Shown here piece after piece: positions 206 to 23,376 of a stretch of 24,343 nt of DNA. The translations under genes and the position numbers were made by a program. The notes beneath the pieces are model-generated. The model was given only the letters and a program-made list of their open reading frames with translations, was not told where the DNA came from and did not search any database. The stretch lies in the UHGV virus genome UHGV-0344763. One strand, written 5' to 3'. Numbering within the stretch: position 1 is the stretch's first letter; the number at the start of each line of letters is the position of its first letter. Source of the DNA: a virus.

Positions 206-400
206 TCAGTCCAGTTTCCAGACAACCAGTGCGTCACCTTTTTGAAGGCGCTTTAAAGCACGTTTTAATCCAGGTCGGCCTGTCCTTATTCCGCTTAATT
301 TATCTTCAAATATTTGTTCACATCCTGCACAAACAAGAGCGTTTCGTTGCAGGTCTGTATTCTGGTCATTTGTTGATACACGTACATAGCCAATAAGCAT
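206..400 (-). pseudogene. Serine DNA invertase (Pin/Gin/Hin/Cin family), N-terminal ~64 codons only, ended by an in-frame TGA
   Basis: ORF 206..436 contains MLIGYVRVSTNDQNTDLQRNALVCAGCEQIFEDKLSG..RPGLKRALKRLQKGDALVVWKLD, the catalytic N-terminus of Gin/Pin-type invertases (active-site Ser in VRVST). A stop follows KLD where these invertases continue RLGRSMKHL; downstream sequence switches to Tfa-like. Confidence 0.8.
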
Positions 401-426
401 GTTAAATCCCCCTGGTAAAAGCAGGA

Positions 427-1938: not shown

Positions 1939-1940
1939 TT

Positions 1941-2588: not shown

Positions 2589-2591
2589 GGA

Positions 2592-4640: not shown

Positions 4641-5185
4641 GCCTCCATCGCTTTATCCGGTTTGTCGGTGTTACTGCCCTGACCGTTCTCTCTGTGACGA
4701 TGCCCGTTATAGGCAAGCCGCATCGCTGACATGGTAGTGCCGCTGGAGTCGCACAGGTCTTTCACCTGTCCTGTCACTTCCAGGTCCATTTCAAAACGTG
4801 CTTTAGGTGAATTGCGAAACGTGATCGTTTTACCTGCACCGTCCACCACGATCCCCTCCCGGGTCAGCGTCACGGACTGCCCCTGATCGTCATAGACAGC
4901 CACCTCACCCGTCTGCAGCCCTTTCAGGCGGTAGCGCCGGTCCGACACCGTAACAACCACCGCATGAGAACGGTCGCCATCCGGAAACAACACCACCGCT
5001 TCCGCACCGCTGTTTGCCCTTGCGGTAAAACCGTAGGGTTCAAGATGTTCAACCCCGGCTTTGGGTTCACCGGCAATCAGGGACACATCCACGGTCTGAC
5101 ATTTCGTGGCGGCACTGATACTTTTCACCACTGCCCGCCCAATCAGGCCGAGGAGTTGTCGCTGCATGGCTTCAATCGACCTCAT
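4637..5185 (-). CDS. Baseplate assembly/spike protein V (Mu gp45-like)
   Basis: 182 aa; gpV-like N-terminal beta-rich region; 4-nt overlap with neighbours. Confidence 0.75.
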   Translation of the reverse strand: MRSIEAMQRQLLGLIGRAVVKSISAATKCQTVDVSLIAGEPKAGVEHLEPYGFTARANSGAEAVVLFPDGDRSHAVVVTVSDRRYRLKGLQTGEVAVYDDQGQSVTLTREGIVVDGAGKTITFRNSPKARFEMDLEVTGQVKDLCDSSGTTMSAMRLAYNGHRHRENGQGSNTDKPDKAMEA

Positions 5186-6264: not shown

Positions 6265-7631
6265 TGCACTGGCACCTTCAGAGGGATCACCGGCACAAAG
6301 CCGGGATGCGTAATGGCATTACGCCGGATAATGTCCGCGTCACGCGCCGCGTTATCAAACCAGGTCGCCGCCAGCACCAGCGCGGGTAAAACCTCATCCG
6401 GTGTGCGCTGAATGATCCGAGCAGACTGTTCAAGGCGCGTGTTGATATCCGCATTCAGATCTGCTTTCACCCGGCGCAGCGCCAGAAACAGCGCATCGCT
6501 GGTTGTACGGGACAACTCCTTATCAATTGCCGTATTCAGTGTGTCGCGAATGTCGGTCAGTTCTTCCCACGTTGGCAGGTCAACCGTATTTTTCACCGCC
6601 GGTGCATTGTTCAGTGCCGGATGCGTGACGGAAGGCCAGCCGGAGCTCTGCGCGAGTGTTGTTGACTGCCCCACTGCGGCATTCTGCATCACCGCAGAAG
6701 TTGTTGGCGCAGGCAATCGGGTGACGGCATACGCCGCTTCGCTGATTGCAGTCGTACGAAGGGTGCTGGCAACCACGTTACGCTGCTGCGTCGCCGTGGC
6801 GGTGGTTTTACTGTCCGTTTTCCAGACGCCGCGCGGTTGCAGATCGCTGCCAAGGCTGACACCAGAAAGCGTTTTGATCATGGTGACCAGGTCGCTGGCG
6901 TTACCGTAAAGGCGTTTCCCGGTACGCCACATTTTCTGCACCTGCTCAACGAAATTTTTGCCTGACGATGGCGGCGGCAGAAGTACCGAGATATCCCCCT
7001 GCAACAGCCTGGCGGCATCCGATACGGCAGAATCCACCACTTTCATCGCATCAGAAACATACCCAAGCATTGTGCTGACATTACCGACGACGTCGTTCTG
7101 CACAAAATCCGCCACGCCATCGATACTGAAACCGCTGAAGCTGTCACTGATGCAGTCATCCAGTGCAGAACAGGATGACATCAGCGTCTGCGCCGTCGCC
7201 GCACCTGATGTGGGGTAAGAGAGTTCTCCTGCTTCGACAAACTTCAGGTCAAAACGGACAATACGCCCTTCACTCTTCGATGTGCTGACCCGAACTTCCC
7301 CGTCAACACAGACTTTCAGCTCACCGTAAGTCGGATGGACAAGCGTGCCGGGACCGGGTTTATTCAGCGCGTCAATCAGGCGATCGCGCTGGTCAAAGCA
7401 GTCATCTCCCACCACATAAGCCGTGATGGACGGGCGGAAAGTGATTTTCCCCAGGTCCTCGGTATAGGGTTTGTCGCGGTTCGGGTATTCGTGCGTTTCC
7501 ACACGACGGCCGGTTCCCGCACTTTCTTCTTCAACCTTAAACGGCACACCGCGAAATGACGCGTCCTGAAGTCTGTCTTTCCACGTCATATAAACTCCGT
7601 ACATAAAAAATCCCACCGGAGTGGGACTCAT
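6261..7631 (-). CDS. DNA circulation protein (Mu gpN-like)
   Basis: 456 aa directly downstream of the tape measure gene; N-terminal region typical of the Mu N family. Confidence 0.75.
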   Translation of the reverse strand: MSPTPVGFFMYGVYMTWKDRLQDASFRGVPFKVEEESAGTGRRVETHEYPNRDKPYTEDLGKITFRPSITAYVVGDDCFDQRDRLIDALNKPGPGTLVHPTYGELKVCVDGEVRVSTSKSEGRIVRFDLKFVEAGELSYPTSGAATAQTLMSSCSALDDCISDSFSGFSIDGVADFVQNDVVGNVSTMLGYVSDAMKVVDSAVSDAARLLQGDISVLLPPPSSGKNFVEQVQKMWRTGKRLYGNASDLVTMIKTLSGVSLGSDLQPRGVWKTDSKTTATATQQRNVVASTLRTTAISEAAYAVTRLPAPTTSAVMQNAAVGQSTTLAQSSGWPSVTHPALNNAPAVKNTVDLPTWEELTDIRDTLNTAIDKELSRTTSDALFLALRRVKADLNADINTRLEQSARIIQRTPDEVLPALVLAATWFDNAARDADIIRRNAITHPGFVPVIPLKVPVQ

Positions 7632-7649
7632 TAACAGATTAATTTTTCA

Positions 7650-9485
7650 TTACCTGCCAAAGCGCGTATAGCCAACATCATGGCTGACATCAAAACCGCT
7701 GGATCGCGTTTCCATAACCCGCATACCCGGAGGCGAATTCACAAAAGAGACCTTGATCTCACCATCAACTTTTGGCGCAGAAGCTTTGTTAATCATGAAG
7801 GGATTCGGGCCTGTGGCACCGGAGGCGTTGTTTGACTGAGCCGGATCTACCGCCGGATAAGGTGTGTATCCCCGCGCCGGTATTCCCGCCCCATAAGCAT
7901 CATAAGCACCCGCGCCCCACTGCGCAGAGTTAATGGCATCGACCGTGTCACCGGAACTGTCGGTAAACCACTCAATAATTGGCTTCAGCTTGTCCCACAT
8001 ATCCTGAAACCACTTAACAACCGGCCCCCAGTTATTGATCACCATCCCCAGCGGCGACCAGGCAAAAACTTTCTTAAGGAGTTCCCAGCCAGCCTCAAAA
8101 TAAGGACCAATGGTTTCCCAGAGTTTCTTAAAATAAGGTCCGACAACATCCCAGTTAGTGATAATTAATCCCGCAGCCAGGGCTATCGCCGTCGCAATCA
8201 TGCCAATCGGCGTCATCGACATGATCCTGCTGACAATACTGATGGCACCGCCAACGCCCATCAATCCCAGTTTCAGAATCGCAAGACCGGCAGCAAGCCC
8301 GACGACGCCGCGAATAACCCGGGGATTTTCATCCGCAAACTTCGTGAATTTCTCCCCCACCTCCCCCAGCCATTGCGTGATATTTTTAGCGTCACCAGAA
8401 AATGCGCCGCCAATAGCCGCAAGGCCGTTAGTTGCGGTCCCTGTCATTGCCTCCCACAGGTTGGACAGCGTACCAAGCTGTGCCTGAACACGTTTATTCA
8501 GGCTGGCCTGTTTATTCATCTTCTGCTGGATCTGATCGTAGCCATCCTTTCCTTTATCGATCAGCGCATTGACCACCTGAAGGGTTTCGGCATCATCACC
8601 AAATATTGCCTTAAGTACACCAGTTCGTTTAACGTCGGTCAGTTTTCGCAGCTTTGCCAGTTGCCTGAACATGTTATCAAGACCGCCAAAACTCCCTTTG
8701 CCGTCAGTAAAATCGAGCTGTACCCCGAGTTTCTGGCGGGCCATGATTTTATTGACGTCCCTGATTTTCTTAACGCTTAATCCGGACTGGATAACTTTTC
8801 GCAGGGCGTTACCTGCCGACTCCCCGTTCATCCCCATCTGATCCATCATGACGCTGATGGGGGCAAGGCTCTGTGCAGCCTGAAGACCGTCCTTGTTCAC
8901 CATCTTCAGAACAGAACTGGTTTTAGTGAAGAAGGACAACATGTTGGTATCGTCAACGCCCAGATAAAACGCCTTCTGGATAGTGTCGAACAGCCCCATC
9001 ATGTCTTCTGACGCCGTTCCGGTAGCATCCTGCATCTTTGCGGCAAACTCGGCAGCCGCTTCCGGTGTTTTTTTCAGTTGTACCGCAAGATAAGCTGTCG
9101 CTTTACCCACACCGCCAAGAATGTTTTCTGCCGGGATCCCCTGACGCACCAGCATCTGCATCATGTTCTGAAAATCAGCCGTTGTACCGGGTAGCTGGTT
9201 ACCCAGACCAATAGCCAGTTTATTGATGTCCTGAAAGCTCTTTCCGACCTCACCGTTCGCATCCATCATGGCAACTTTCAGCCCGGTGGCGGCGTTTTCC
9301 TGATCGGCATAAGATTTCAGGGAAAGCGTCAGACCCGCTGCCAGTCCGCCACCAAGCGCCAGCCCACCCTGTGACGCTTCTTCCGCCTGGCGTTTAAATC
9401 CCCGGATTTTCTTTTGCATTTTCGACAGCGCGGGAGAAAGCCTGTCGACACCGGTGATCAACGCCTTAAGCTCAAATTCAGCCAT
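7650..9485 (-). CDS. Tail tape measure protein
   Basis: 611 aa, Ala/Gly/Leu-rich with predicted helical and hydrophobic segments; follows the frameshifted chaperone pair. Confidence 0.85.
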   Translation of the reverse strand: MAEFELKALITGVDRLSPALSKMQKKIRGFKRQAEEASQGGLALGGGLAAGLTLSLKSYADQENAATGLKVAMMDANGEVGKSFQDINKLAIGLGNQLPGTTADFQNMMQMLVRQGIPAENILGGVGKATAYLAVQLKKTPEAAAEFAAKMQDATGTASEDMMGLFDTIQKAFYLGVDDTNMLSFFTKTSSVLKMVNKDGLQAAQSLAPISVMMDQMGMNGESAGNALRKVIQSGLSVKKIRDVNKIMARQKLGVQLDFTDGKGSFGGLDNMFRQLAKLRKLTDVKRTGVLKAIFGDDAETLQVVNALIDKGKDGYDQIQQKMNKQASLNKRVQAQLGTLSNLWEAMTGTATNGLAAIGGAFSGDAKNITQWLGEVGEKFTKFADENPRVIRGVVGLAAGLAILKLGLMGVGGAISIVSRIMSMTPIGMIATAIALAAGLIITNWDVVGPYFKKLWETIGPYFEAGWELLKKVFAWSPLGMVINNWGPVVKWFQDMWDKLKPIIEWFTDSSGDTVDAINSAQWGAGAYDAYGAGIPARGYTPYPAVDPAQSNNASGATGPNPFMINKASAPKVDGEIKVSFVNSPPGMRVMETRSSGFDVSHDVGYTRFGR

Positions 9486-9896
9486 GTGTGCGTTTCTCCT
9501 GCTCTATCCTGTTTGCCTGACTGACCAGCAAGGGAATTTCACTGATCGGCATATTCAGCAATTCGAAGGGATTAATGCGCCAGTAGCTGGCGCAGTCAAA
9601 GAAGCGATCAGTGAGGTATTCAGCCGTCAGGCCTGGAGGAAAAAACCAGCCACAAGCCACGCCGCTGCATTCAGGTCTGCCGGAGACATCTGGTCGACAG
9701 AGCTTTGCGGCACTTTCGCCAGCCGCACAATGTATTTCGACACCACATGCGCCAGAAGTCTGACGGACTCATCCTGATTCATCTGGTAGGGATACCCCAG
9801 CTCGCGGACATCCTTCCCGGTGGGTTCATCAAACTCCAGTACGGAGAGTGTCTCACCATGAGCGATAATCGGTTTCTTTAACTCAAGCTCTTTCAT
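9478..9896 (-). CDS. Tail assembly chaperone, long product by programmed -1 frameshift (G/GT-like)
   Basis: ORF 9478..9660 is in the -1 frame relative to 9627..9896; heptamer T_TTT_TTC at ~9639-9645 (minus-strand sense ggT TTT TTC ctc) permits the slip; -1 frame continues FFPPGLTAEYL... Confidence 0.55.
9627..9896 (-). CDS. Tail assembly chaperone, short (zero-frame) product
   Basis: 89 aa between tail tube and tape measure; contains the slippery site near its 3-prime end. Confidence 0.7.
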   Translation of the reverse strand: MKELELKKPIIAHGETLSVLEFDEPTGKDVRELGYPYQMNQDESVRLLAHVVSKYIVRLAKVPQSSVDQMSPADLNAAAWLVAGFFLQA

Positions 9897-10252
9897 TACT
9901 GGTAATCCCCTTCTTCACCGTGGAACTCAAGATCAACCGTGCCTTCTTCGGCATTATGGTTCGCTTCTCCGTGCAGCCAGGCGGACGACAATACATAGAC
10001 CTGACCGTTCGCCAGCTCGGCAGTGATAGTCATCTCATCAGACGAGGTGATTTTGCTCACCGGAAAATTCTTCGGCACCTTGAAGGTCCCTTTGACATAA
10101 GGCGCACGGTGAGTTTCCTTGCGGTCCACTGAACCGTCCAGGCCGATGATGTCATCATTGACCGTCCTGTTCATGGGCACCTCAATGCCGCCGGTCAGCG
10201 ATAGCTGCTGACCGTCAATTTTGAAATAACAGGTTCCCCCGATACGGGCCAT
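9896..10252 (-). CDS. Tail tube protein (Mu gpM-like)
   Basis: 118 aa immediately after the sheath gene, ATGA-type overlap. Confidence 0.8.
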   Translation of the reverse strand: MARIGGTCYFKIDGQQLSLTGGIEVPMNRTVNDDIIGLDGSVDRKETHRAPYVKGTFKVPKNFPVSKITSSDEMTITAELANGQVYVLSSAWLHGEANHNAEEGTVDLEFHGEEGDYQ

Positions 10253-11748
10253 TATGCAGACTCCTCTGAATACTGAAGACGGAACTGGTTAACCACGGCA
10301 AAGACACGCAACTGGTTAACATAGTCAGGCGGGAACAGCGTGTTCAGGCGGTTCGGATCGCTGGCATCACGCTCCACAACCAGGTACTGCTTAAACAGTT
10401 CGTAGTTTTCCACGATCCCCGCACGCTCAAGCTGACGGTAGGTTGCCAGCAGTTCCCCTTTGATCACCGCCGGGGTGACAATCGCCTGACCGGGACCAAA
10501 GCGGGTACCGTCACTGGCAAGCTTGTGACGCCCGTACTTACTGGTAATGACGGATTTCAGTTTGCGCAGTACATACGCGCTGGTATGCAGAGTCTCACTG
10601 TCTAGGTAGCTGTTATCCGCAACCCCGTAAGCGTTTTTCCTGTACGTGGTGACATCACGCTGAATGCGCAGTACCCCGCTTTCGACATACGCCGTTGCCA
10701 CGCCATGAGACAGCAGGGTCTGTTGTTCGGTCATCGTGAACCGTTTCCCCTTCGGCGCAGGCAGCATACCCACCAGCTCACCGGTCTGCGTGGGACGTGC
10801 CGGATCGTTGCGAATAAACACCGCTGCGCGGGCGGTACGGCTTGCCGCCAGCTCGTCGGCAGGCGTCTGGGTCTCTTTTTCGTATCCCGCCAGGGTAATG
10901 TGCTGCTGGTTAAACTGGTCACCTGCGGTCACCAGTTCTGACAGCGTGCCGATCTTTGCCGTATACACATGACCATACAGCTGACGCGCATAGCTCCAGC
11001 GACCGCTGGTATCGTTCATCTCGGTCACCAGCGTGTTAACGGAGGCCGTGTCGTTGAACGGCAGGCCGATATAATCAAACGGCTCATCCGCCATTGCAGC
11101 CACCGCGCCGGTGAGAACAGGAGCGCCCGTTCCGGCGGTACCCGTCGCCACGGCAATCTGTACGCCCGCTGGCAGCACTTCGCCCCCACCAAAGCCGTAG
11201 TAATTGAGGCTGACAGGAATTTCATTCCCGCAAAGCCCCTTATGACGCGCGGTCAGTGTGACCACGCCTGCCGAAGATGAGGCAGTAAACGGCAGGGTCG
11301 GAACGGCATTGATGGCATCCTGGATACTGCTGGCAATCGTCGCAACGTTATCGCCGTTGGTCACCGGTGCCTGCACGCGGGTACGTCCCACATAAACATT
11401 CACCGTGCCGGTTTCGGTTGCCGCGCCGGTCACCGTCAGCGTAACCGTTGCCGCCGCGCCCGTGGATTCAGGAACGGCAATCACATACAGCTCGCCAAAC
11501 GGGTCGGTCTGGCGATAAGCCTCGACCATACGCGCCAGCTGACTTCCCGCACCACAAATCTGGCGTGCATAGTCTGCCGACGGCATCAGTACCAGACTGT
11601 TGGCAACAATCTCTGCACCGTTATTGGCATGACCAATCAGCAGCGATGCTCCGCTGTCCTGTGCAGTATTCGCCGCCTGATTATCCATTTCCGCATAAAA
11701 CAGCGGAACCAGCGTATTCGACGGAATGGTGTTAAAGCTTATCGTCAT
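10252..11748 (-). CDS. Contractile tail sheath protein (Mu gpL-like)
   Basis: 498 aa; size and operon position. Confidence 0.85.
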   Translation of the reverse strand: MTISFNTIPSNTLVPLFYAEMDNQAANTAQDSGASLLIGHANNGAEIVANSLVLMPSADYARQICGAGSQLARMVEAYRQTDPFGELYVIAVPESTGAAATVTLTVTGAATETGTVNVYVGRTRVQAPVTNGDNVATIASSIQDAINAVPTLPFTASSSAGVVTLTARHKGLCGNEIPVSLNYYGFGGGEVLPAGVQIAVATGTAGTGAPVLTGAVAAMADEPFDYIGLPFNDTASVNTLVTEMNDTSGRWSYARQLYGHVYTAKIGTLSELVTAGDQFNQQHITLAGYEKETQTPADELAASRTARAAVFIRNDPARPTQTGELVGMLPAPKGKRFTMTEQQTLLSHGVATAYVESGVLRIQRDVTTYRKNAYGVADNSYLDSETLHTSAYVLRKLKSVITSKYGRHKLASDGTRFGPGQAIVTPAVIKGELLATYRQLERAGIVENYELFKQYLVVERDASDPNRLNTLFPPDYVNQLRVFAVVNQFRLQYSEESA

Positions 11749-11902
11749 CGGTGTTCACCTTTTTATTCACGCGCCGGATATCACCCGCTACTTCACGGCG
11801 CAGCCAGTAGTTGTTCTCGTCAACATTTCGCCCTTCGGCGGGCAAAAGGTCGCCGCGGGCAGGGTCAGGAACTGACCGCCCTTTAACAGGTTTGACAAAC
11901 AT
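11732..11902 (-). CDS. Small hypothetical protein (56 aa) preceding the sheath gene; not in the ORF track
   Basis: Hand translation MFVKPVKGRSVPDPARGDLLPAEGRNVDENNYWLRREVAGDIRRVNKKVNTDDDKL; ATG preceded by GAGGA; fills the otherwise empty 160-bp gap. Confidence 0.4.
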   Translation of the reverse strand: MFVKPVKGRSVPDPARGDLLPAEGRNVDENNYWLRREVAGDIRRVNKKVNTDDDKL

Positions 11903-11910
11903 GAGGATCC

Positions 11911-12471
11911 TCAGGAAGGAAGGGTTATTTCGGTGTGATGTTCGATATCGCCGTCAGGCCCGTTACCGGGCTCGAGATAATCAACATCAATCGCCAGCGT
12001 TTGCAGTTCATCCAGACTGTTCAGATCATCCTGCTGGCGGGTATCGTCTTCAGTCAGCTCGCTGATGACCGAAAAATCGAACTGATAAATCAGCTCATGA
12101 CGATTCAGATCCAGCAGCGTGCCGCCGTCATAGGTAATCGGGTTACCGCACGCTTCCGGGTTCCAGCCCAGCAGGGCCTTAAAGAGCATCTGCCGGACAT
12201 CGTCCACCACATCATACGAGGCAAACTGACCGCGCTCATCACGCCCGTTACTCAGTATGACAACCACGGAGAAGCCCTCTTTCAGCTCCTGCCAGTAGTC
12301 GGTCTGGCTTTTGTTTTCTCCCGGAGAGTCATCACCCGGTACCACATACGCCGCCGGGAGTCTCAGCTTTCCGACCTCCGGCAGATTTTTGAACTGTGCC
12401 GCGCCTGCCACCCGGTTTTCAAAATACGGGCAGCGGGCACGCAGCGCAGCAATAACAGGCGTCAGTTTCAT
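11911..12471 (-). CDS. Putative tail completion / neck protein
   Basis: 186 aa, between head-tail joining genes and sheath; function by position only. Confidence 0.55.
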   Translation of the reverse strand: MKLTPVIAALRARCPYFENRVAGAAQFKNLPEVGKLRLPAAYVVPGDDSPGENKSQTDYWQELKEGFSVVVILSNGRDERGQFASYDVVDDVRQMLFKALLGWNPEACGNPITYDGGTLLDLNRHELIYQFDFSVISELTEDDTRQQDDLNSLDELQTLAIDVDYLEPGNGPDGDIEHHTEITLPS

Positions 12472-12974
12472 CTGTGTCGTCGCTCCGGCTTCAGTGATTT
12501 ACGCAATTCCCGCGCCAGAAAATAGCGTGTCCAGCTGCGGTTCTTTTCAAGCGTTTCCACCATGAAGTTATTACGTGGAGCCAGTCGCCAGCCGCTGCCA
12601 CCGGATGCACCACGATGATGACTACGACGACGTTTTGCTCCTCCCCGGACACCAAAAAACAGAAACGCCGGATAGAAGTCACCAGAGATCATCCGGTTCC
12701 CCTTCCCGTTGCGCTGGTTAGGGGCAATGCGTGTCATAAAACCGGCTCGCTTTTTACTGGCTCTCGGCACCATATAACCAATCGAACGAGCCAGGCGTCC
12801 GGTCTGATAACCGGGGTTTTCACCCGGTGCCGACCGCGCACGGCGCATCACCAGCCGACGGGCATCACGCATATGACGCTGCCCAATCGTGACAAACGCC
12901 CGCCGGACACGGGCGCGGTTAAAGCGCATCTCGGCGGGCTGCTGAACATCAACGTGAAAAAAGGGAGTCGCCAT
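12468..12974 (-). CDS. Phage virion protein, strongly basic (Arg-rich); possibly HK97 gp10-like or virion morphogenesis family
   Basis: 168 aa, tightly packed (4-nt and 26-nt overlaps with neighbours); unusually high Arg/Lys content. Confidence 0.5.
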   Translation of the reverse strand: MATPFFHVDVQQPAEMRFNRARVRRAFVTIGQRHMRDARRLVMRRARSAPGENPGYQTGRLARSIGYMVPRASKKRAGFMTRIAPNQRNGKGNRMISGDFYPAFLFFGVRGGAKRRRSHHRGASGGSGWRLAPRNNFMVETLEKNRSWTRYFLARELRKSLKPERRHR

Positions 12975-13359
12975 TGCTGCCTCCGTGACTCTGCCTACAT
13001 TCGCCCAGCTCCGTACACTCCAGCAGCAGAAAGCGCCGCGCCCCGTTCAGATCACGCTGACGTTTCACCCGGTACACACTGTCATCACAGACCACCTCAT
13101 AATCAGCAGTGATCCCCCGGCGGTAACGAATGGTGATGTAATGGGTGATGGCGTCCCCGGTCTGCGCGGTTTCCTGCCAGGTGGTGGCACTGGTCTGGAT
13201 AACCTTCGCCCATGTCCGGAACGTAACCGGGTATTGAGGCTCCACGCCAAAGTTATCCGCGGGCATATCCACCCGCAGGCGGATCAGGACGCGTTTATTC
13301 AGTTCACCGGGGTCCGGCAGAATGTAGGTTGCGCTGGTCTGCGCCTGACGAATTTTCAT
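12949..13359 (-). CDS. Head-tail adaptor / head closure protein (putative)
   Basis: 136 aa directly downstream of the gp6-like connector. Confidence 0.6.
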   Translation of the reverse strand: MKIRQAQTSATYILPDPGELNKRVLIRLRVDMPADNFGVEPQYPVTFRTWAKVIQTSATTWQETAQTGDAITHYITIRYRRGITADYEVVCDDSVYRVKRQRDLNGARRFLLLECTELGECRQSHGGSNGDSLFSR

Positions 13360-13679
13360 TGCGGAAAGTACCTGTACGGGCCGACAAGCCAGCCAAAACT
13401 CTGCGGCATGTCGAGTTTCTCCACTTCCGTAACCGACGAGCGGTTTTCGTAAAAATGGCTGATAAGCATCAGCATCCCCAGACGAATATCATCCGTCAGG
13501 TGCAGCCCGTCCGGATCGCTCTCCGGAATGGTTTCATCCGGTGCATAGAGCTTCCGGTTCAGATACGTTTCCGTCCGCTTTTGCGCCGCACAGGCCAGCA
13601 GTTGCAGATGGCGGTCATCAGCATCGAAATCCTCATCCAGCCGGAGTTGGGCTTTAATCTCTTCCATTGTCAGAAGCAT
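13356..13679 (-). CDS. Head-tail connector protein (gp6-like)
   Basis: 107 aa; N-terminal MLLTMEEIKAQLRLDEDFDADD motif typical of gp6-like connector proteins. Confidence 0.7.
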   Translation of the reverse strand: MLLTMEEIKAQLRLDEDFDADDRHLQLLACAAQKRTETYLNRKLYAPDETIPESDPDGLHLTDDIRLGMLMLISHFYENRSSVTEVEKLDMPQSFGWLVGPYRYFPQ

Positions 13680-13681
13680 AC

Positions 13682-13882
13682 TCAGCCCTCTTTACTGGTC
13701 GTGGCTTTTTTCTCTTTTGCCGCTTTACTGCTTTTTGCACTGGTTCCGCGCTCTGCTAACCCGGCCTGAAGTGCAATCTCCTGCACCCGGGCAGGAAGCG
13801 CCCCGTCGTCATACTCACCGGCCCGAATGACCTCAACACGCATACCGTCCGGTGACCATTTCAGATCTTGTTTCAGGATCAT
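13682..13882 (-). CDS. Small hypothetical head-associated protein with Lys/Ser-rich C-terminal tail
   Basis: 66 aa between the capsid-gene hairpin and the connector gene; C-terminus AKSSKAAKEKKATTSKEG. Confidence 0.45.
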   Translation of the reverse strand: MILKQDLKWSPDGMRVEVIRAGEYDDGALPARVQEIALQAGLAERGTSAKSSKAAKEKKATTSKEG

Positions 13883-13904
13883 GATTCTTCACCCGTCAGA
13901 ACAG

Positions 13905-13924
13905 GGGGCGCGGTTCCGCGCCCC
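13905..13924 (-). promoter_or_regulatory. Perfect GC hairpin just downstream of the major capsid gene
   Basis: ggggcgcgg tt ccgcgcccc (9-bp GC stem) 8 nt after the capsid stop; no U-run, so not a canonical intrinsic terminator. Confidence 0.5.
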
Positions 13925-13931
13925 TGAGTGA

Positions 13932-15137
13932 TTACGCCGCTGCAATCTTCAGCAGTTTGATGGCCTGCGAATCTACCAGCATCCCGCCGGTGCGCTTGGT
14001 GGTATAAAAACCGACAAACGGTTTATTGGTGTACGGATCACGCAGAATGCGGGTGCCGATACGGTCAACGATGGTGTAACCCCGTTTGAAGTTACCAAAT
14101 GCAATGGCTTTCGCATCAGCGGCGATATCCGGCATCTGTTCGTTTTCAGCGATACCGTAACCCGCCAGAGAGGACGGCTGCCCCAGTTCCAGCCCCGGAC
14201 GCCACAGATAGTTACCCTCGGTGTCTTTCAGCAGACGGATGGCAAACAGGCTGTTGTTGTTCATCATGAACTTCGCGCCAGTGCGGTGTGCCTTACGCAG
14301 CGTGTAAATCAGTTTGATAATGGCGTCTGCGGTCACCGCCGTCGCGTCGCCGGATACAATATGCTGAAGTTTGCCGAACGCCCGGACCTTGTCGGTTTCA
14401 TCCGTGGATTCATACGCCAGGAACCCTTTCGGCTTCTTGGTACCATCGCCGGTGGTAAAGGCAATTTCTTCCTGTTCGGCAAATTCGGTTGCCAGCTCGC
14501 TGTTGATCCAGGCCTCCACGTTGAAAAAGGCATCATCCAGCATTTTCTGGGTGGCCTGCGGGTTACCGTAGATTTCCCCCATGAAAGGTTCAATCAGCCC
14601 CAGTTTTGAGGTGGCAGTCTGGGAGCGCGCGTCAGTCTCGCCAACCCATCCGGAAGCCGTGCCGCCCAGATTCACCAGTTTTTTGTAGTCGGAACCACCA
14701 ACGGTGATCACCGTGGCTTCCTGACGCATCACCACTTCATCTTTCAGCAGGTTAAGAATGTTGCGATCCAGTTCTTCCGGCACGGCGTAGCCACCGTCTT
14801 CATCGGTGCCCACCTGCAATGCCTTACGCTCCAGATCGCGCAGACCGTCTTCACGGCCTTTACGCAGGAAGCCCACAAACGCCTCTTTATGCTCGGTGGC
14901 CAGTTTATTTTGCGCACCACCTGCCGGACGTTTCAGCTCAAGCAGCTCTTTTTCAAGATCGCTTTTGAGGTTTTCCAGCTCGCTGAGTTTCCCGTTCAGG
15001 GTTTCCACCTGCCCGGCAAGTTTGCCTTTTTCCTGCTCAATCGCATCCACGCGCTTGTCGTTCTTTGCTTTGAAGTCGTCAAACTTCTGCTGCAGCTCCT
15101 GCGCGACCTGTTCGACATCTTTAATATCAACCGCCAT
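13932..15137 (-). CDS. Major capsid protein, HK97 family
   Basis: 401 aa; coiled-coil-like N-terminal delta region followed by capsid domain; follows the prohead protease. Confidence 0.9.
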   Translation of the reverse strand: MAVDIKDVEQVAQELQQKFDDFKAKNDKRVDAIEQEKGKLAGQVETLNGKLSELENLKSDLEKELLELKRPAGGAQNKLATEHKEAFVGFLRKGREDGLRDLERKALQVGTDEDGGYAVPEELDRNILNLLKDEVVMRQEATVITVGGSDYKKLVNLGGTASGWVGETDARSQTATSKLGLIEPFMGEIYGNPQATQKMLDDAFFNVEAWINSELATEFAEQEEIAFTTGDGTKKPKGFLAYESTDETDKVRAFGKLQHIVSGDATAVTADAIIKLIYTLRKAHRTGAKFMMNNNSLFAIRLLKDTEGNYLWRPGLELGQPSSLAGYGIAENEQMPDIAADAKAIAFGNFKRGYTIVDRIGTRILRDPYTNKPFVGFYTTKRTGGMLVDSQAIKLLKIAAA

Positions 15138-15151
15138 CGTATTTCTCCTGA

Positions 15152-15838
15152 TTAGAAGTTCAGATTTTTCAGTGCATTCAGTGCAGAGCCCACATCCTCA
15201 GCGTCGCGCAGGGACAGTGCGCCATAGCCCCCGGCCATGAATGCTTTGGCCTGGGTACGGGAGAGTCCGACATCACGCAGGACTCTTTCGATTTTTTTCT
15301 GTTCGGGGATTTCCCCGCGGGCCAGTGCGTTCTTGACGTCGCTGATCCGCGCCTCGTCGTTAGACGGGAATGTCACCAGACTGACTTCCCAGAGGTCGAT
15401 TTCTTTCAGCAGAAAGGCTTCTTTCGTCCGGTCGTATTCCCAGTCCTTCAGGACGTACCCAATAGAAAGGCCGGTTAACGAACCGGCCTTCATGTGTGCA
15501 TGTGCGCGTTTTGCCAGGGGATCATCATCAATGAGCAACCGCCCCCTGACGTAAAGCCCGACATCGTCTTCCTTCATTTCGGTGTAAACACCGATGGGCT
15601 CATCCATGCGGTGCTGCCAGAGCAGCGCAGGTAACGCTTTTCTGTCACTCCACGCCCGCAGGGAAGCAGCAAATGCCCCGGACATCACCACATCATCGTG
15701 GCTGTCCTTTACACCAAAGACGGAGCCATACCCTTCAAACTCACCGGAGTCACTGACAGATTTCAGACTCAGCGGTACATCAAGACGTTGTTTCGTCTGC
15801 ATTGGCGTTATCCTTCTGCTTACCGGCTTTACTGCCAT
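15152..15838 (-). CDS. Prohead protease, HK97 family
   Basis: 228 aa between portal and major capsid genes; true start may be the internal Met (MQTKQRL...). Confidence 0.85.
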   Translation of the reverse strand: MAVKPVSRRITPMQTKQRLDVPLSLKSVSDSGEFEGYGSVFGVKDSHDDVVMSGAFAASLRAWSDRKALPALLWQHRMDEPIGVYTEMKEDDVGLYVRGRLLIDDDPLAKRAHAHMKAGSLTGLSIGYVLKDWEYDRTKEAFLLKEIDLWEVSLVTFPSNDEARISDVKNALARGEIPEQKKIERVLRDVGLSRTQAKAFMAGGYGALSLRDAEDVGSALNALKNLNF

Positions 15839-17021
15839 CGGAGGGTTTCGTGGTCATGTTCATCGGTGTGAGATAGACATCCCCACCGGGACGCGGATTC
15901 ATATCTTCCAGGTCGCGGCAGTCATTGGGAGAGTAAATTCCCCAGTTAATCCCGGTGGCGTAGGCTTCAAAACGGGACTTCATATCCCCGCGCAGTAACG
16001 CCCCGGCGTTAAATTTGGCGTAATAAACGCCCTGCTTACTTTTTCGTACCAGTCCGGTGTTGATCCGCTGTTCGATGCGGGTCAGATACGGCACCAGTGA
16101 ATAGTTGATAAATCCCAGCCCCAGCTCTTCGATATTGTTGAAGGTGGCGCGATCGGTGTTCTGCACCATGTGCAACGGCACCCGGAACAGACGACAGATT
16201 TCTTCAAGCTGAAACTTGCGGGTTTCCAGGAACTGGCTGTCCTCGGCGTTCAGCGCCATCGACTTCCAGTCCAGCCCCATCTCAAGGATCATCGGGCGGT
16301 GAGCATTGCCAAGTCCGGTGTGACGCTCCTCAAAATCTTTCTTCAGGCGCTCATAAGCCTGATCTGACAGCGTCTGCTCTGTACGCAACACACCCGACGT
16401 CACCGCGCCATTGCTGAACAGTCTGGCCCCGTGCTCTTCGGTCGCTGCCGCCAGCGATATTGCCTCGCGGGCATAGGCGATGGGATTCAGCCCCACCAGT
16501 CCGTCCAGCGTCAGCGTGCGCACATGCCAGATATCCTCCTGGCTCAGTACATCCGTGGAGCCATCCGGGAATGTGACCTGATAGACCGGCTCCCAGCTAC
16601 TGTTAAGCTTCGGTACCACACAGCCGGGATCGACGGGCAGCAGTTCAGCCACTTCGCCAAATGCTTTCACTTTGTAGGCGTAAAAGTTTCCCCGCAGGCA
16701 CAGACAGGTGACCACCAGCTCCCAGAACTCCTGCGGCGTCATATAGCCATTGGGATGCGTGGAGATCAGCTTATGCAGACGTTCGCCAGTGGCTCTCTGC
16801 TTCAGGCTGCCGTTCAGGTGATACAGGTTGCAGGGCAACATCCCGACCGACTCCGCCAGCACCCTGACACAGGAAAAAACCGCCGTCAGTCGCATGGCCC
16901 GCTGGCTGCTGATCTGCTTTCCGGTATAGGTGTCGTAGGACAACCCGATAGCATCCGCCAGCTCTGCTGGCGTGGTCATCGGTGCGTCACTTTTTCGTTG
17001 AAATAATCCCGAAAAAAACAC
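15780..17021 (-). CDS. Portal protein, HK97 family
   Basis: 413 aa; GTG start at 17021 preceded by GGAGG (an ATG at ~16979 is an alternative start). Confidence 0.9.
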   Translation of the reverse strand: MFFSGLFQRKSDAPMTTPAELADAIGLSYDTYTGKQISSQRAMRLTAVFSCVRVLAESVGMLPCNLYHLNGSLKQRATGERLHKLISTHPNGYMTPQEFWELVVTCLCLRGNFYAYKVKAFGEVAELLPVDPGCVVPKLNSSWEPVYQVTFPDGSTDVLSQEDIWHVRTLTLDGLVGLNPIAYAREAISLAAATEEHGARLFSNGAVTSGVLRTEQTLSDQAYERLKKDFEERHTGLGNAHRPMILEMGLDWKSMALNAEDSQFLETRKFQLEEICRLFRVPLHMVQNTDRATFNNIEELGLGFINYSLVPYLTRIEQRINTGLVRKSKQGVYYAKFNAGALLRGDMKSRFEAYATGINWGIYSPNDCRDLEDMNPRPGGDVYLTPMNMTTKPSDGSKAGKQKDNANADETTS

Positions 17022-17203
17022 TATTTACCTCCGCCGACAGACGACTGTGTACGCTCAAGATATCGCGCCACCAGCCACGACCAGAACAGGCACAACGCCC
17101 CGGCAACAACAAACCCCGCCGGGGGATAAATCAGCCAGGCACCATACGCCAGCAAAAGCGCCCCCAGCACGCCCACCAGAGGCGCGAGAATCAGCATGAT
17201 CAT
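17021..17203 (-). CDS. Small hydrophobic membrane protein (two predicted TM helices)
   Basis: 60 aa [55 protein letters not shown]...; ATG preceded by GAGGT; stop overlaps the portal GTG start; wedged between terminase and portal. Confidence 0.55.
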
Positions 17204-17214
17204 AATTACCTCAG

Positions 17215-18948
17215 TTAAAGCGAGCGGATCCCATAGGACTCAATGTGGTCAGACAACGTGTCTTCTTTCTCGTACAGCATGGCTCTGCCAACCGCCATAA
17301 TCAGCGCAACTGCACCATCGATTTTGTTTTCCGCCTGCTCTTTGACGGGCTTCACCACATCATCGTTACCCGGAATGGTTTTGCCGACCACGTTGCCGAT
17401 ACACCAGGTCATGATGGGATTGCCATCATGATGAAAGCGCCCCGATTCAATTGCCGCTTCCAGCTCTTTCATCGGGTCGGACATGTTGGTGTAGTTCTGA
17501 ATGATAGTGATGGGGTTCAGGTCTTCATCAGCAAGGTCATGTGACAACCCGGTCGCCCCGAAGGGGTCGATGGGTGACTCACTGACCGGGCTGATTTTGT
17601 TCGCCGCTTTGGCCTCCTCGAGGATGTAGCGATAATCCACCTCCGCACCATCGGTAACGGTCAGAACGCCCATTTCCACCCATTTCTGAAAGCGTTCGGC
17701 TGTCCGGCGATCTTCATTTTTCTCGACGCTGTACACCGTGTCATACGGTACCCAGAAACGCGGGGCCACACTGTAGTAATGCGTTTTACCGTCAATCTCG
17801 CGGGTATAAAGTCGCGCCATGCTGTTCATATCCAGCTTACGCGCCAGGTCAAAGGCCAGAATGCACGGCTGCCCCTCGAACTGCTCAAGGGTCAGTGATT
17901 TATCCTCGCAGCTCTGCCAGCTCACCAGGTTGAAATACGCCGAACGCGCCGACACCCAGATATTGAGGTGCTTTGTTTTAAAGACGTTTGCCAGACGGGC
18001 GTTATTTTTCGCACGCTGCTGCTGACTTAACAAAAATTCGCGATAAACCGACACGCCAATATTCGGGTTAGCTTTTTCCAGCACCTGCGGGTCGGTCCAG
18101 TCATCGCCTTCGTCAACGGTATAGATGATCCCGAACAGTTCATCATTGGGTACCGACCCGTTGAGCATCTCGATAACTTCCCGCCGCTTGTCGTAGCACG
18201 GCCCCTCAATGTTGTACCCGGCAGTAGTAATGGCCCACATCAGTGGCTGACGTCGCGCCCCCATCCCGGTAAGCATCGTGGTGTAAAGCGCATCGGTGGC
18301 GTGCTCGTGATATTCATCCACCACCGCACAGTGGGGTGATGATCCATCACCGGGGTTACCGATCAGCGGTTCAAACCGCGCGCCATCCTCCGGACGGTTC
18401 ATGTTTGAGGCGTTAACCTCAATCCCGAACGCTTCCGTCAGCATGGGCGTGCGTTTACACATCAGTCGCGCCGGGCGAAAGACTTCCCACGCCTGTTTCT
18501 CTGTCGTGGCACCGGAATACACTTCCGCGCCAAACTCGTTATCACAGGCAAAACAATACAGGGCGACACCGGCAGAGATTGCCGATTTGCCGTTCTTACG
18601 GGGGATTTCGGTATACACCTCCCGGAAGCGGCGCAGCCGGGAGCCTTTATTGACCCAGCCAAACGCACAGCAGATCACAAAGAGCTGCCACGGCTCCAGC
18701 GTGATGGGCATCCTCTTGAATGCCCACTCACCCTTGGTGTGCGGCAACAGCTGAATAAATTTGGCGGCCCGTTCAGCCAGGTCCTTGTCGAAGCGGTAAC
18801 GAAACGACTTACTTTTTTCCGCCATCAGGTCATCAAGATGGCGCTGGCAGGCCTGAATCACAAACTGGCAGGCCACAATCTTTCCGCGAACGACATCCCG
18901 GGCATACTGATTGGCAGCATTTACGTTGGGGTAAGATTTCCGGCTCAT
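17215..18948 (-). CDS. Terminase large subunit
   Basis: 577 aa; Walker A-like IPRKNGKS; ATGA overlap with the small subunit gene. Confidence 0.9.
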
Positions 18949-19448
18949 GATTCGATGATTTTCAGAAACGGGTTAGTAGCTTTCTTCTGCCCCGCCAGGC
19001 CAATCAGACGCTGGCGGCTGCTGGGGTCGAGTCCGAGCATTGCCCCCGTGCTGCTCATCTCGGACTCCTGTTCTTTTTTGGCGGTCAGCTCAGGATTTTT
19101 GACCATACCGCCCATTGCACCGGTGATGGTGTTGCCCTGTCTGGCAATATTTTTCACGGCACGTCGCCAGAACTCATAGGCCACACACCACCGCTCAAGC
19201 ACCGCGAGGTCAGTCACGCACAGCAGGCCCTGACCGCAAAGTTCTTTAGTTGTCAGTTGCCACATGATCGTGGCGAGAGGGAGATCTTCTTCAGCGAACC
19301 ACTCCGGTGGCTCAACACCTTTGATGGGCGTAAAAACAGGTTCATCTTTATTCAGGGCTCGCTTGCCGGGGTTTCCGGCCAGCGCCTTGCGCGCCGTTGG
19401 CTTGGGGCGACGCCCGGAACGCCCCGCCGTTCCAGCCATATGCGGCAC
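18945..19448 (-). CDS. Terminase small subunit (P27 family)
   Basis: 167 aa; basic N-terminus; directly upstream of the large terminase gene and downstream of HNH/cos region. Confidence 0.85.
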
Positions 19449-19564
19449 TCCTGGTTAAATTTCATTTTTCGCGGGTATAAAAAAACGATGGGGCGGGCAG
19501 TCCGGAAGACGTCAGGTCACAGAGATTTGACCCGCCCCTCCCCTCAGACAGTTGAGAATTATTA
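19449..19564. other. Candidate cos / packaging-initiation region
   Basis: Intergenic between HNH and small terminase genes (the cos position in HK97-like phages); inverted repeat tggggcgggc (~19489-19498) and gacccgcccc (~19529-19538) flanking ~30 bp, followed by a T-run on the minus strand. Confidence 0.4.
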
Positions 19565-19915
19565 TCACTTTAACCGTTCACGGGCCGTCTTCGCCTTATG
19601 GCAGGGCCAGCACAGACTCTGCAGATTACTGTCGGCATCAGTGCCGCCATGCGCTTTAGGGATGATGTGGTCAACGGTTTTCGCCTCACGCACCACACCG
19701 GCACGCAGACATAACTGACACAGACCTTTGTCACGCTTCAGAACACGCGCGCGGATACTGTCCCACTTCGAACCGTAGCCGCGCTGATGACGGGATTGTC
19801 CAGGTTTGTATTGCTTCCAGCCTTCGCTTTTGTGGCTTTCGCAGTAGCCTGAAGGGTCAGTAGTGGTATGGCGGCAGCCGCGAACACGGCAGGCTTTCGG
19901 GGTTCGTGGCGGCAT
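19565..19915 (-). CDS. HNH endonuclease (packaging-associated)
   Basis: 116 aa; Cys-rich N-terminus and the H-N-H core (DHIIPKAHGGTDADSNLQSLCWPCH). Confidence 0.85.
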   Translation of the reverse strand: MPPRTPKACRVRGCRHTTTDPSGYCESHKSEGWKQYKPGQSRHQRGYGSKWDSIRARVLKRDKGLCQLCLRAGVVREAKTVDHIIPKAHGGTDADSNLQSLCWPCHKAKTARERLK

Positions 19916-19963
19916 TAATGCTTCCCTTTAAGTTATTACGATGGAACAGACCATAGAAATGGC

Positions 19964-19988
19964 AATAAAAAACCGCCCGGAGGCGGTT
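19964..19988 (-). terminator. Rho-independent terminator downstream of the moron ORF
   Basis: Minus-strand sense aaCCGCCtccgGGCGGTTTTTTatt: GC stem, 4-nt loop, U-tract, ~20 nt after the stop of ORF 20008..20328. Confidence 0.6.
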
Positions 19989-20007
19989 CAATTATCATCT
20001 CGATAAA

Positions 20008-20967: not shown

Positions 20968-21427
20968 TTACCACCCCACCAGCTTCTTTAAATCGGGAAA
21001 TCAGGTCACCGATTCTATGTTCATACTGACCGTAACCTGCACCAGGTAACGACGCCCAGATATTGCTGCAACGGTCGATTGCCTGACGAATATCGCCGCG
21101 GTCAATCATCGGTAAAGCGCCACGCTCTTTAATCTGCTGCAGCGCTACAGCATCCTGACTTTCTGGAGAAAAATCTTTCAGACCAAGTTGCTTGCGGTAG
21201 GAATCCCACCAGCGAGAAAGAAGCTGGTAACGTCCGGCGGCTGTTGATTTGAGTTTTGGGTTTAGCGTGACAAGTTTGCGAGGGTGATCGGAGTAATCAG
21301 TGAATAGCTCTCCGCCTACAATGACGTCATAACCATGATTTCTGGTTTTCTGACGTCCGTTATCAGTTCCCTCCGACCACGCCAGCATATCGAGGAACGC
21401 CTTACGTTGATTATTGATTTCTACCAT
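20951..21427 (-). CDS. R: Endolysin R (lambda-type lytic transglycosylase)
   Basis: 158 aa, [39 protein letters not shown]... closely matches my recollection of lambda R. Confidence 0.9.
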
Positions 21428-21734
21428 CTTCTACTCCGGCTTTTTTAGCAGCGAAGCGTTTGATAAGCGAACCAATCGAGTCAGTACCGATGTAGCCGAT
21501 AAACACGCTCGTTATATAAGCGAGATTGCTACTTAGTCCGGCGAAGTCGAGAAGGTCACGAATGAACCAGGCGATAATGGCGCACATCGTTGCGTCGATT
21601 ACTGTTTTTGTAAACGCACCGCCATTATATCTGCCGCGAAGGTACGCCATTGCAAACGCAAGGATTGCCCCGATGCCTTGTTCCTTTGCCGCGAGAATGG
21701 CGGCCAACAGGTCATGTTTTTCTGGCATCTTCAT
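21411..21734 (-). CDS. S: Holin S (class I, lambda S107/S105 type with MKM dual start)
   Basis: 107 aa, [39 protein letters not shown]... matches lambda S as I recall it; three TM segments. Confidence 0.9.
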
Positions 21735-21737
21735 GTC

Positions 21738-21755
21738 TTACCCCCAATAAGGGGA
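21738..21755 (-). promoter_or_regulatory. Stem-loop over the S ribosome-binding site (sdi-like)
   Basis: Minus-strand sense CCCCttattGGGGGtaagacATG: the hairpin 3-prime arm overlaps the Shine-Dalgarno region for Met1. Confidence 0.5.
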
Positions 21756-21976
21756 TTTGCTCTATTTAATTAGGAATAAGGTCGATTACTGATAGAACAA
21801 ATCCAGGCTACTGTGTTTAGTAATCAGATTTGTTCGTGACCGATATGCACGGGCAAAACGGCAGGATGTTGTTAGCGCGACCTCCTGCCACCCGCTTTCA
21901 CGAAGGTCATGTGTAGAAGGCCGCAGCGTAACTATCACTGATGAATTCAGGATAGCCAGTGGCTACGGCTCAGTTA

Positions 21977-22052
21977 TGGTGCTGTTTAACGGACTTGAAC
22001 CGCTACCCATTCGCTTACAAGGCGACCGCTCTACCATTGGAGCTAAAACAGC
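21977..22052 (-). tRNA. tRNA, anticodon UGU (Thr) by hand folding
   Basis: GCTGTTTTAGCTCCAATGGTAGAGCGGTCGCCTTGTAAGCGAATGGGTAGCGGTTCAAGTCCGTTAAACAGCACCA: perfect 7-bp acceptor stem, D-arm with GG, TTCAAGT T-loop, encoded CCA; one G.A mismatch at the top of the anticodon stem. Confidence 0.7.
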
Positions 22053-22057
22053 ATGTT

Positions 22058-22132
22058 TGGCGGGACAGCGTGGACTCGAACCACGATAAGAAGGTTAACA
22101 GCCTTCCGTAATCACCTTTATACGACTGACCC
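22058..22132 (-). tRNA. tRNA-like gene, anticodon GUU (Asn-like), atypical
   Basis: GGGTCAGTCGTATAAAGGTGATTACGGAAGGCTGTTAACCTTCTTATCGTGGTTCGAGTCCACGCTGTCCCGCCA: perfect anticodon stem and CUGUUAA loop, canonical T-arm, encoded CCA, but mismatches in acceptor stem (T.T) and D-stem. Confidence 0.5.
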
Positions 22133-22136
22133 AAAT

Positions 22137-22178
22137 AAAAAAAGCCACCGTTGCAACTTAAGAGTCACTAACGGCAGC
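22137..22178 (-). terminator. Candidate tR-prime-like terminator of the short constitutive late transcript
   Basis: Minus-strand sense gctgccgtt...aacggtggc followed by TTTTTTT, ~40 nt downstream of the candidate late promoter; stem is imperfect. Confidence 0.4.
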
Positions 22179-22188
22179 TTACCTTCTA

Positions 22189-22218
22189 ATTATGGCTAAA
22201 TGGATAATTGCATGTCAA
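22189..22218 (-). promoter_or_regulatory. Candidate late promoter (pR-prime-like) overlapping the 3-prime end of Q
   Basis: Minus-strand sense TTGACA (plus ~22213-22218), 18-bp spacer, CATAAT (plus ~22189-22194). Confidence 0.5.
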
Positions 22219-22714
22219 GGCTTTTAACAGCAACATGCTTAACTTTCTCAACACGTTTACGCATTTTGAAAGCATTTTGCATTGGCTGGTACAAAACAAA
22301 TAACGATGCTTTCAGGATGTCGTCAATTTCGTTTCTACAGGTTGCTAGTGAAGGTTTTCTCCATCCCTCGCCACCACGTCCACACATCTTGCGTGGCTTT
22401 GCAGTCGCGTGATAGTAGGATGCAATTGCTCGCTTAGATGAACCATGAGCGTAGTAGCTGAGGAGGATGCCAAAGGCTTTCTTGTCAATGCACATGACGG
22501 AATCGACGACCTGAGAAATCAACATTCCATCATCATCATTGCACATTGGCCTTGTCATAACTCTTCCCGGCTCTACGCTCTCCATGAACTTCGCTATTAC
22601 GCTGCTCATGCGCTTTTCCAGACGACCTGAATAAACCCATGCGCCCCACAGTTCAAGCCAGCCATTCAGCCACTCATGCTGTTCTTTGGTGAGGTTTAGT
22701 TCTCTTATGCCCAC
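22196..22714 (-). CDS. Late antiterminator Q (non-lambda Q type)
   Basis: 172 aa located between the nin/phosphatase genes and the lysis cassette, ending at a strong promoter plus nearby terminator; Cys-containing central region. Assignment is mainly positional. Confidence 0.6.
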
Positions 22715-23376
22715 GCGCCTTCTCCCTGTACCTGAATCAATGTGAGGTTTCCGCAGAACACTGCGCCGGTATCGATATACATTTGGTTGGCAAATTTAAG
22801 TGGTTTCACTGCTGGCGTATGACCAAAGATAAACGTGTCCGCGCCTTTAATTTCTTTAACGATCCCGTCTTGTGAGTTGCTGATTCGTTCGCGGTTCCAG
22901 ATTACCTGCTGATGATCAACTGGCTTTCCAAATTCGTATTCGTCACAAGGATAATCGGCGTGGCAGATGACATATTTTTTACCTTTGCTCACCAGTTCGA
23001 TGATTAACGGAAGTTCTTCTGCTTTATGGGCAAGAGCTTTAGCCAGAATTTCTTTGTCGTAATCGAGATTAAAGAACCAGCCACCGCCATTAAGCAGCCA
23101 GTGATTAACGTTTCCACGCTCTGATAAGCCATCAATCATCATTTGCTCATGGTTTCCACGTACAGCTCTGAACCAGGGGAATGTGATTAATTCCAGGCAT
23201 TCAACGTTCTCTGCACCACGATCAACCAAATCGCCCACCGAGATAAGCAGGTCTTTTTTGTTGTCGAATCCAATCGTATCCAGTTTGTTCATCAGGTTCG
23301 TGTAGCATCCGTGCAGATCGCCAACTACCCAAATATTTCGGTATTTGCTGCCATCAATTCTTTCGTAGATATTCAT
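22705..23376 (-). CDS. Ser/Thr protein phosphatase (lambda PPase, ORF221-like)
   Basis: 223 aa with metallophosphatase motifs GDLHGC, GDLVDRG, GNHE; closely matches my recollection of lambda phosphatase. Confidence 0.9.

Follow-up and report, generated by a model that had tools for sequence, protein, structure and literature searches.

A putative phage-21-type cassette for late-gene control, overlapping the end of the Q gene in a lambdoid prophage

In the minus strand of the 24,343-nucleotide stretch of viral DNA analysed here (virus genome UHGV-0344763; hereafter, the window), a gene resembling the Q antiterminators of lambdoid phages ends within a near-consensus promoter, and a hairpin followed by a run of T lies just beyond. 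Do these elements form a late-gene switch of the pR'/tR' kind, in which Q modifies the polymerase paused near the promoter such that it reads through an early terminator, or does the promoter, the hairpin or the short RNA have some other role? The pR'/tR' reading, put forward in an earlier note on this DNA, is supported by the alignment of the site with the annotated elements of phage 21, which is free of gaps from the Q-binding repeats onward, and by the late genes that follow in the same strand. As the reference, we used the fully annotated phage 21 genome OL657228, in which the -35 and -10 hexamers, the upstream and downstream Q-binding elements (QBEu and QBEd), the late start, the sigma-dependent pause element (SDPE), the terminator and tRNA-Asn are all marked. 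In our view, the site very likely serves a lambdoid prophage as a phage-21-type cassette for the control of its late genes. The elements, their homology, the RNA fold, the conservation and the co-variation described below were computed here, and the pause, the loading of Q and the nozzle mechanism are taken from experiments on phage 21.

The Q gene, its promoter and the neighbouring genes

All genes discussed here are encoded in the minus strand. The ninG gene (23984-23373) is followed by the gene for a ninI-type phosphatase (23376-22705) and then by the Q gene (22196..22714), which appears in the list of open reading frames with 172 aa and a GTG start. The Q product matches the Pfam family PF06530 (E = 1.3e-25) and the solved Q21 structures 6JNX and 6P18 (about E = 1e-91). 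The protein shares 98-99% identity with the Q proteins of Sf6 and HK629. With phage 21 Q, the identity is 85% over 162 aa; the first 94 residues are nearly identical in the two, and the divergence lies mainly after residue 94. Judging from these matches, which confirm the call of a Q-like gene in the earlier note, the 172-aa ORF upstream of the site is a Q21-family antiterminator. Unlike phage 21 Q, the window protein has a 10-aa C-terminal extension, by way of which the gene reads across the -35 element and the Q-binding repeats.

The promoter was located by a promoter scan and by alignment with the annotated phage 21 pR'. The -35 hexamer TTGACA (22213..22218, minus strand) lies within the last Q codons, and the -10 hexamer CATAAT (22189..22194, minus strand) begins two bases past the Q stop codon TAG (22198-22196), such that the near-consensus minus-strand promoter originally placed over the last codons of the Q-like gene proved exact to the base. 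With a spacer of 18 nt, the two hexamers match the consensus at 11 of the 12 positions, and this is the sole site with at least 11 matches in the 24.3-kb window. The bare motif is not significant, with one or more such sites appearing in 19% of first-order Markov simulations of the window. This frequency of chance matches, along with the location of the hairpin directly 3' of the last early gene, would fit the explanation that the promoter match is fortuitous and that the hairpin and T-run merely terminate the early-right (nin-Q) operon, but we regard this as extremely improbable. The -35, the repeats, the -10, their spacing and the pause element are conserved in a set of 32 loci (30 of 32 retrieved genome contigs, along with the window and phage 21) from many enterobacterial genera, namely, Escherichia, Pantoea, Yersinia, Morganella, Providencia, Edwardsiella and others; the repeats co-vary with the DNA-contact residues of Q; and the homologous promoter of phage 21 has been found to be active in experiments. 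Within this family, TTGAC is invariant (32 of 32 loci), and the -10 has A at position 2 and T at position 6 at every locus (again, 32 of 32). Of 80 viral contigs, 26 have the identical 82-nt core, and most of the others depart from it by 1-3 bases. The placement of the site and the degree of its conservation thus put it beyond chance, and the analysis points to a sigma-70 promoter at the 3' end of the Q gene, in the same strand.

Downstream of the hairpin, two tRNA genes were detected by ARAGORN and by the Rfam tRNA model, tRNA-Asn (GTT; 22058..22132, minus strand; 55.3 bits) and tRNA-Thr (TGT; 21977..22052, minus strand; 61.2 bits). They are followed in the same strand by the gene for the lambda-type holin S (21411..21734, minus strand), which is the first late protein gene and was identified from the ORF list, a match to Pfam PF05106 (E = 2.4e-30) and the annotations of relatives, then by the endolysin (21427-20951, minus strand) and Rz genes, and further on by SfII-like terminase, portal and tail genes. 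The gene order is the same in phage 21.

At the 1-kb scale, the Q region is best matched in E. coli NS-NP030, by a lambda-like prophage located at ybhC; this is a different prophage, of mosaic make-up. Given that the Q region matches a lambda-like prophage and the late genes are SfII-like, the Q-pR' module is common to very different virion modules. The 1-kb region is matched in 189 phage records and in 1,836 of 5,426 complete E. coli genomes; in RefSeq/PGAP records of E. coli, the site carries no annotated feature. The late genes of the window (positions 1-20000, minus strand) are 97% identical to those of the Shigella phages SfII, SfI and SfIV and of vB_EcoM-689R6, and the SfII-like virion module includes a sheathed tail, an HNH endonuclease and a P27-type small terminase.

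A second terminator-like hairpin, GGCAGGA...TCCTGCC followed by GTTTTG (21854-21889, minus strand), is located between the tRNA-Thr and holin genes, as part of a larger local fold (-29.5 kcal/mol, z = -2.1), and a Q-modified polymerase would need to cross it as well. In phage L, a predicted terminator is annotated between the tRNA genes and the holin gene. The window hairpin lies within a stretch that is 97.5% identical to lambda 44945-45185, which raises the question of whether it corresponds to lambda tR'. It probably does not: the matching stretch is unannotated in the lambda record and presumably lies 3' of the 6S terminator, judging from the lambda late start and the 6S length.

Inside the Q gene, in the antisense orientation, TTGCGTGGCTTTGC (22389-22402, plus strand) fits the CII-binding pattern TTGYN6TTGY, and a -10-like TAGGAT is present close to it (22416-22421, plus strand). 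In the phage 21 record, the corresponding positions carry the antisense promoter paQ and its CII site, so that control by an anti-Q RNA is probably conserved in the window.

Start site, pause element and terminator

The transcription start is predicted, to within about 1-2 nt, at G22182 (minus strand), seven bases downstream of the -10. It aligns with the late start site marked for phage 21 and with the first base of a 50-nt RNA annotated in an older phage 21 record, AJ237660; that RNA has the same start and ends directly before the tRNA. Homology therefore puts +1 at the very position, ~22182, near which initiation had been expected. For phage BTP1, the site of which is identical, no experimental start-site table was found in the supplements of PMC5856525, PMC6333337 and PMC7067206.

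The heptamer TAAGCTG that follows the start (22175..22181, minus strand) is, in the alignment, identical to the annotated phage 21 SDPE. It contains a -10-like TAAGCT at +2..+7 (22181-22176), the type of pause-inducing element for which a search of the first 25 transcribed nucleotides had been proposed, and the pattern T-A-N-N-N-T occupies +2..+7 in all 32 family loci. In phage 21, arrest of the sigma-dependent paused complex occurs at +14, and the open bubble then spans +3 to +15. The native phage 21 pause reportedly lies at ~+18, in work by the Roberts laboratory. From TAAGCTG through the hairpin and the T7 run into tRNA-Asn, the window is 100% identical to phage 21, whereas the 231-bp segment overall is only about 78% identical.

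The predicted intrinsic terminator tR' (22137..22180, minus strand) consists of a 17-bp hairpin and the T7 run, and is delineated by folding, by the identity with phage 21 and by the tR' annotations in Sf6 and HK75 (Tr' in the latter). The RNA from +1 to +50 (22182-22133) folds into a stem of 17 bp, interrupted by a single bulged A and capped by a CUUA loop, at -20.2 kcal/mol (z = -5.4; none of 200 shuffled sequences was as stable), and extending the fold through the tRNAs leaves this hairpin in place. The consensus terminator scan did not list this hairpin because of its loop and pair limits, and folding was needed to find it. Among 14 relatives that keep a hairpin, RNAalifold predicted 15 pairs, 6 of which show compensatory changes. 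The stem spans +3..+41 (22180-22142) and the T7 run 22143-22137. Thus, both the hairpin and the T7 run described earlier are present, but the hairpin begins almost at the start, and it is the T-run, not the hairpin, that lies ~40 nt downstream.

From the start and the terminator, a short leader RNA of about 44-50 nt (22133..22182, minus strand) would be made without Q. The unmodified transcript of ~45 nt predicted in the earlier note agrees with the 50-nt RNA annotated in AJ237660, and the leader is equally short, about 45-50 nt, in the window and in phage 21. The identity of this leader across phages with diverged flanks is compatible with the explanation that the terminated RNA is a trans-acting regulatory sRNA like StxS: the short pR'-tR' transcript of Stx phages binds Hfq and regulates rpoS and stx1, and the authors of the StxS study proposed that sRNAs come from other antiterminated promoters, too, phage 21 being among the listed makers of short RNAs. 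Such a function is nevertheless quite unlikely for the window RNA, which has 2 free 5' nucleotides, a 4-nt loop and the U tail, with all the rest in one hairpin, and hence no accessible seed. A search of positions 21300-22800 against Rfam returned only the two tRNAs and one chance match, so that no Rfam family matches the leader. Moreover, mosaic exchange, together with the DNA-level needs of pausing and termination, can account for the identity with phage 21.

The 5' end of tRNA-Asn is located 4 nt past the T7 run, which makes it the first gene in the read-through transcript, and tRNA-Thr starts 5 nt after tRNA-Asn. There is no space for a separate promoter at either gene, so that both depend on read-through of tR'. 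Cleavage by RNase P at the tRNA-Asn 5' end would free the hairpin leader from read-through transcripts as well. The tight packing of tRNA-Asn against the T-run is also what would be expected if the promoter served mainly as a constitutive promoter of the two tRNA genes, with the hairpin acting as a partial attenuator and the tRNAs being supplied both to the lysogen and in lytic growth. The -10 hexamer, which is much closer to the consensus than that of phage 21, would suit such a promoter, and the BTP1 transcriptome paper excludes "the two tRNA genes" when listing highly expressed prophage genes, a wording that implies their abundance in lysogen cultures. However, a 17-bp, -20 kcal/mol hairpin with U7 is a strong terminator, and the identical sequence of phage 21 terminates in vitro, Q being needed for read-through. 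Given the 0.2% spontaneous induction of BTP1 and the high stability of tRNAs, abundance need not mean expression in the lysogen; should the BTP1 tRNAs indeed be highly expressed, the reason may be either a leaky tR' or a contribution of the cells that were induced spontaneously. Furthermore, the same promoter and terminator occur without following tRNA genes in HK75 and in about 26 of the 80 viral contigs. A mainly constitutive role in tRNA supply thus appears unlikely and, moreover, would be an addition to the Q switch rather than its replacement.

The terminator of the Q switch is not configured in the same way throughout the family. The distant relatives (L098, L102-L110 and L115-L121) are without the immediate U-tract and have a separate strong terminator at ~+100 to +130, so that the very short leader is typical of the phage 21/Sf6/E. 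coli-Salmonella branch, not of the whole family. In the U-tract-less relatives, only the 5' part is conserved, that is, the pause element and about 12 nt, or the first ~20 transcribed bases (TAAGNTGCCGTA..GTG). The initially transcribed DNA of these distant Q21-family cassettes seems to be under a constraint of its own, separate from that on the terminator. A role of the leader hairpin beyond termination was considered and found to be unsupported: 3 relatives keep the hairpin without a U-tract, and no consensus structure was detected at the leader position in 12 U-tract-less relatives.

Q-binding repeats and their co-variation with Q residues

In phage 21, the QBE is located between the -35 and the -10 and consists of two direct repeats, each of which binds one Q protomer. 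The -35/-10 spacer of the window likewise contains two direct 8-bp repeats. The predicted upstream subsite, AATTATCC (-27..-20; 22202..22209, minus strand), aligns with phage 21 QBEu, ATTGAGCA; the predicted downstream subsite, ATTTAGCC (-19..-12; 22194..22201, minus strand), aligns with QBEd, AATGAGCA, and includes the Q stop codon as well as the first base of the -10. Two C:G pairs that are essential in phage 21, at -21 and -13, are conserved in the window as C22203 and C22195. Between the repeats and the pause element, there is no indel relative to phage 21, the sole gap in the alignment being of 1 nt, just after the otherwise identical -35 hexamer. The spacer measures 18 nt in the window as against 17 nt in phage 21, and the geometry from the -35 to the QBE is slightly different. 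The -10 is CATAAT in the window, closer to the consensus than the AACACT of phage 21, and the bases from -6 to +1 differ between the two as well.

The sequences of the repeats differ together with the protein. Q21 contacts bases through H95, A124, R127 and R128, and R113 is placed in the minor groove. The combination that defines the phage 21 specificity, that is, H95, R113, A124, R127 and R128 with TGAGCA repeats, was not found in the window, where Q has R95 in place of H95 and N128 in place of R128 (H95R and R128N), and the repeats contain TTATCC and TTAGCC. The phage L genome paper (2021) named AATTATCC/AtTTAgCC as the likely QBE, the first 8-mer being the same as the upstream subsite here. 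By these sequence features, the window Q and its repeats are of the Sf6/HK75/L specificity subtype, not of the phage 21 subtype, and cross-specificity between the window Q and Q21 appears doubtful. Which Q recognizes which repeats is, for the Sf6/HK75/L subtype, inferred.

Across the 32 loci, residue 128 co-varies perfectly with position 4 of both 8-bp repeats: scored at the downstream repeat, arginine is found with G in 19 of 19 loci, and asparagine or lysine with T in 13 of 13. Residue 95 is similarly associated with repeat position 8, which is the first base of the -10 hexamer, arginine being found with C at 16 of the 17 loci that have it (the exception is L094) and histidine, tyrosine or leucine with A at 15 of 15. 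Switches of residue and repeat recur inside close clades, for example, between the Morganella loci L115 and L117. The co-variation of Q residues with the repeats provides independent evidence that the spacer repeats are the true target of Q. In the same 32 Q21-family loci, R124 goes with the repeats AATGGACA and ATTGGCAC.

We lean towards the view that the Q21 family employs a simple recognition code that has re-evolved repeatedly, in which residue 128 reads position 4 (Arg for G; Asn or Lys for T) and residue 95 reads position 8 (Arg for C; His, Tyr or Leu for A). If this is the case, prophages in the same cell would keep their late switches separate even with Q proteins that are 85% identical, the sequence would suffice to predict or re-engineer the specificity of a Q protein, and phage 21 Q would be unable to activate the late switch of the window, an N128/R95 member. 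So far, the comparison of L with 21 is the only one published, the family-wide co-variation being unreported in the literature searched. The co-variation of two Q residues with two repeat positions across the family is a modestly useful by-product of this analysis, in the form of a testable specificity code.

Proposed mechanism and known systems

With these elements, late control in the window would proceed as it does in phage 21. Without Q, the host sigma-70 polymerase would initiate at pR', near G22182, and region 2 of sigma would re-bind TAAGCT at +2..+7, such that the polymerase would pause within the first 14-18 nt; it would then resume, make the 17-bp hairpin and the U-run, and release an RNA of ~45 nt. 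Once Q has accumulated, two protomers are predicted to bind AATTATCC and ATTTAGCC and to contact the paused polymerase. At the pause, only the 5' arm of the hairpin (+3..+20) would have been made, so that Q must load within roughly 25 nt of the release point. In phage 21, the upstream Q protomer builds a ring into the RNA exit channel; only single-stranded RNA can pass through it, which prevents the formation of terminator hairpins, and GreB raises the read-through of tR'21. By analogy, one protomer of the window Q would ring the exit channel and, admitting single-stranded RNA only, block the terminator hairpin, and transcription modified by Q would cross tR' into tRNA-Asn, tRNA-Thr, the lysis genes S, R and Rz, and the virion genes. 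For the Sf6/HK75/L subtype, the start site and the efficiency of termination are inferred by extension from phage 21; the literature search recovered no transcription experiment on the Sf6/L Q subtype, Q-dependent read-through having been shown only for phage 21.

The reading of the switch in the earlier note is supported, but the note missed the Q-binding repeats, the two tRNA genes after the terminator and the fact that the system had been described. The site is already known: pR', qut and tR' are annotated in Sf6, pR' and Tr' in HK75, and a variant QBE was described for phage L (2021). The present analysis locates the lysis/virion switch of the window prophage, which helps its annotation, and the cassette itself brings no new biology, that of phage 21 being a structural paradigm for antitermination.

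The closest counterparts of the window cassette are those of Sf6, HK75, L and BTP1, from which it is essentially no different; the surrounding modules differ, the virion genes of the window being SfII/SfI-like. From the -35 to the T-run, BTP1 and HK75 are identical to the window, and phages of the same subtype are identical or differ by 1-2 bases. In Sf6, a G replaces a T of the upstream repeat, and the 1,051-bp query, from Q into the beginning of the holin gene, is matched at 98.0%; the Sf6 record AF547987 annotates "P R' ... nearly identical to phage 21 late promoter", a "qut site" and "t R'", and marks tRNA-Asn and tRNA-Thr as "similar to phage 21". HK75 has pR' and Tr' annotated at the same place and is without the tRNA genes, and phage L has a tRNA-Leu where the window has tRNA-Thr.

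HK629 shares Q and the promoter with the window through the -10, beyond which it has another leader, with a TATGCT pause element, and another terminator. This switch of leaders implies a mosaic joint between the -10 and +1, that is, modular exchange around the start. Likewise, 4 of the 80 viral contigs have an unrelated leader after the -10, with TATGCT at the same distance and a more distant terminator (GCCCACCTCCTGTGGGCTTTTTT).

Beyond the Q21 family, StxS (EcOnc15) of the Stx phages resembles the predicted window leader in being a short constitutive RNA produced by early termination at tR' of an antiterminated late promoter; however, StxS is a 74-nt processing product of a longer transcript, binds Hfq and contains a seed, whereas the window leader is a closed hairpin with no evident seed. 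The pR'/qut/tR' system of lambda follows the same logic as that of the window, with a constitutive promoter after Q, a sigma-dependent promoter-proximal pause, loading of Q at promoter DNA and read-through of an intrinsic terminator. Lambda Q is unrelated to the Q21 family in sequence and in fold except for the HTH, and requires a -35-like element that other lambdoid late promoters do without. The terminated RNA of lambda, 6S, is 194 nt long, compared to about 45 nt in the window.
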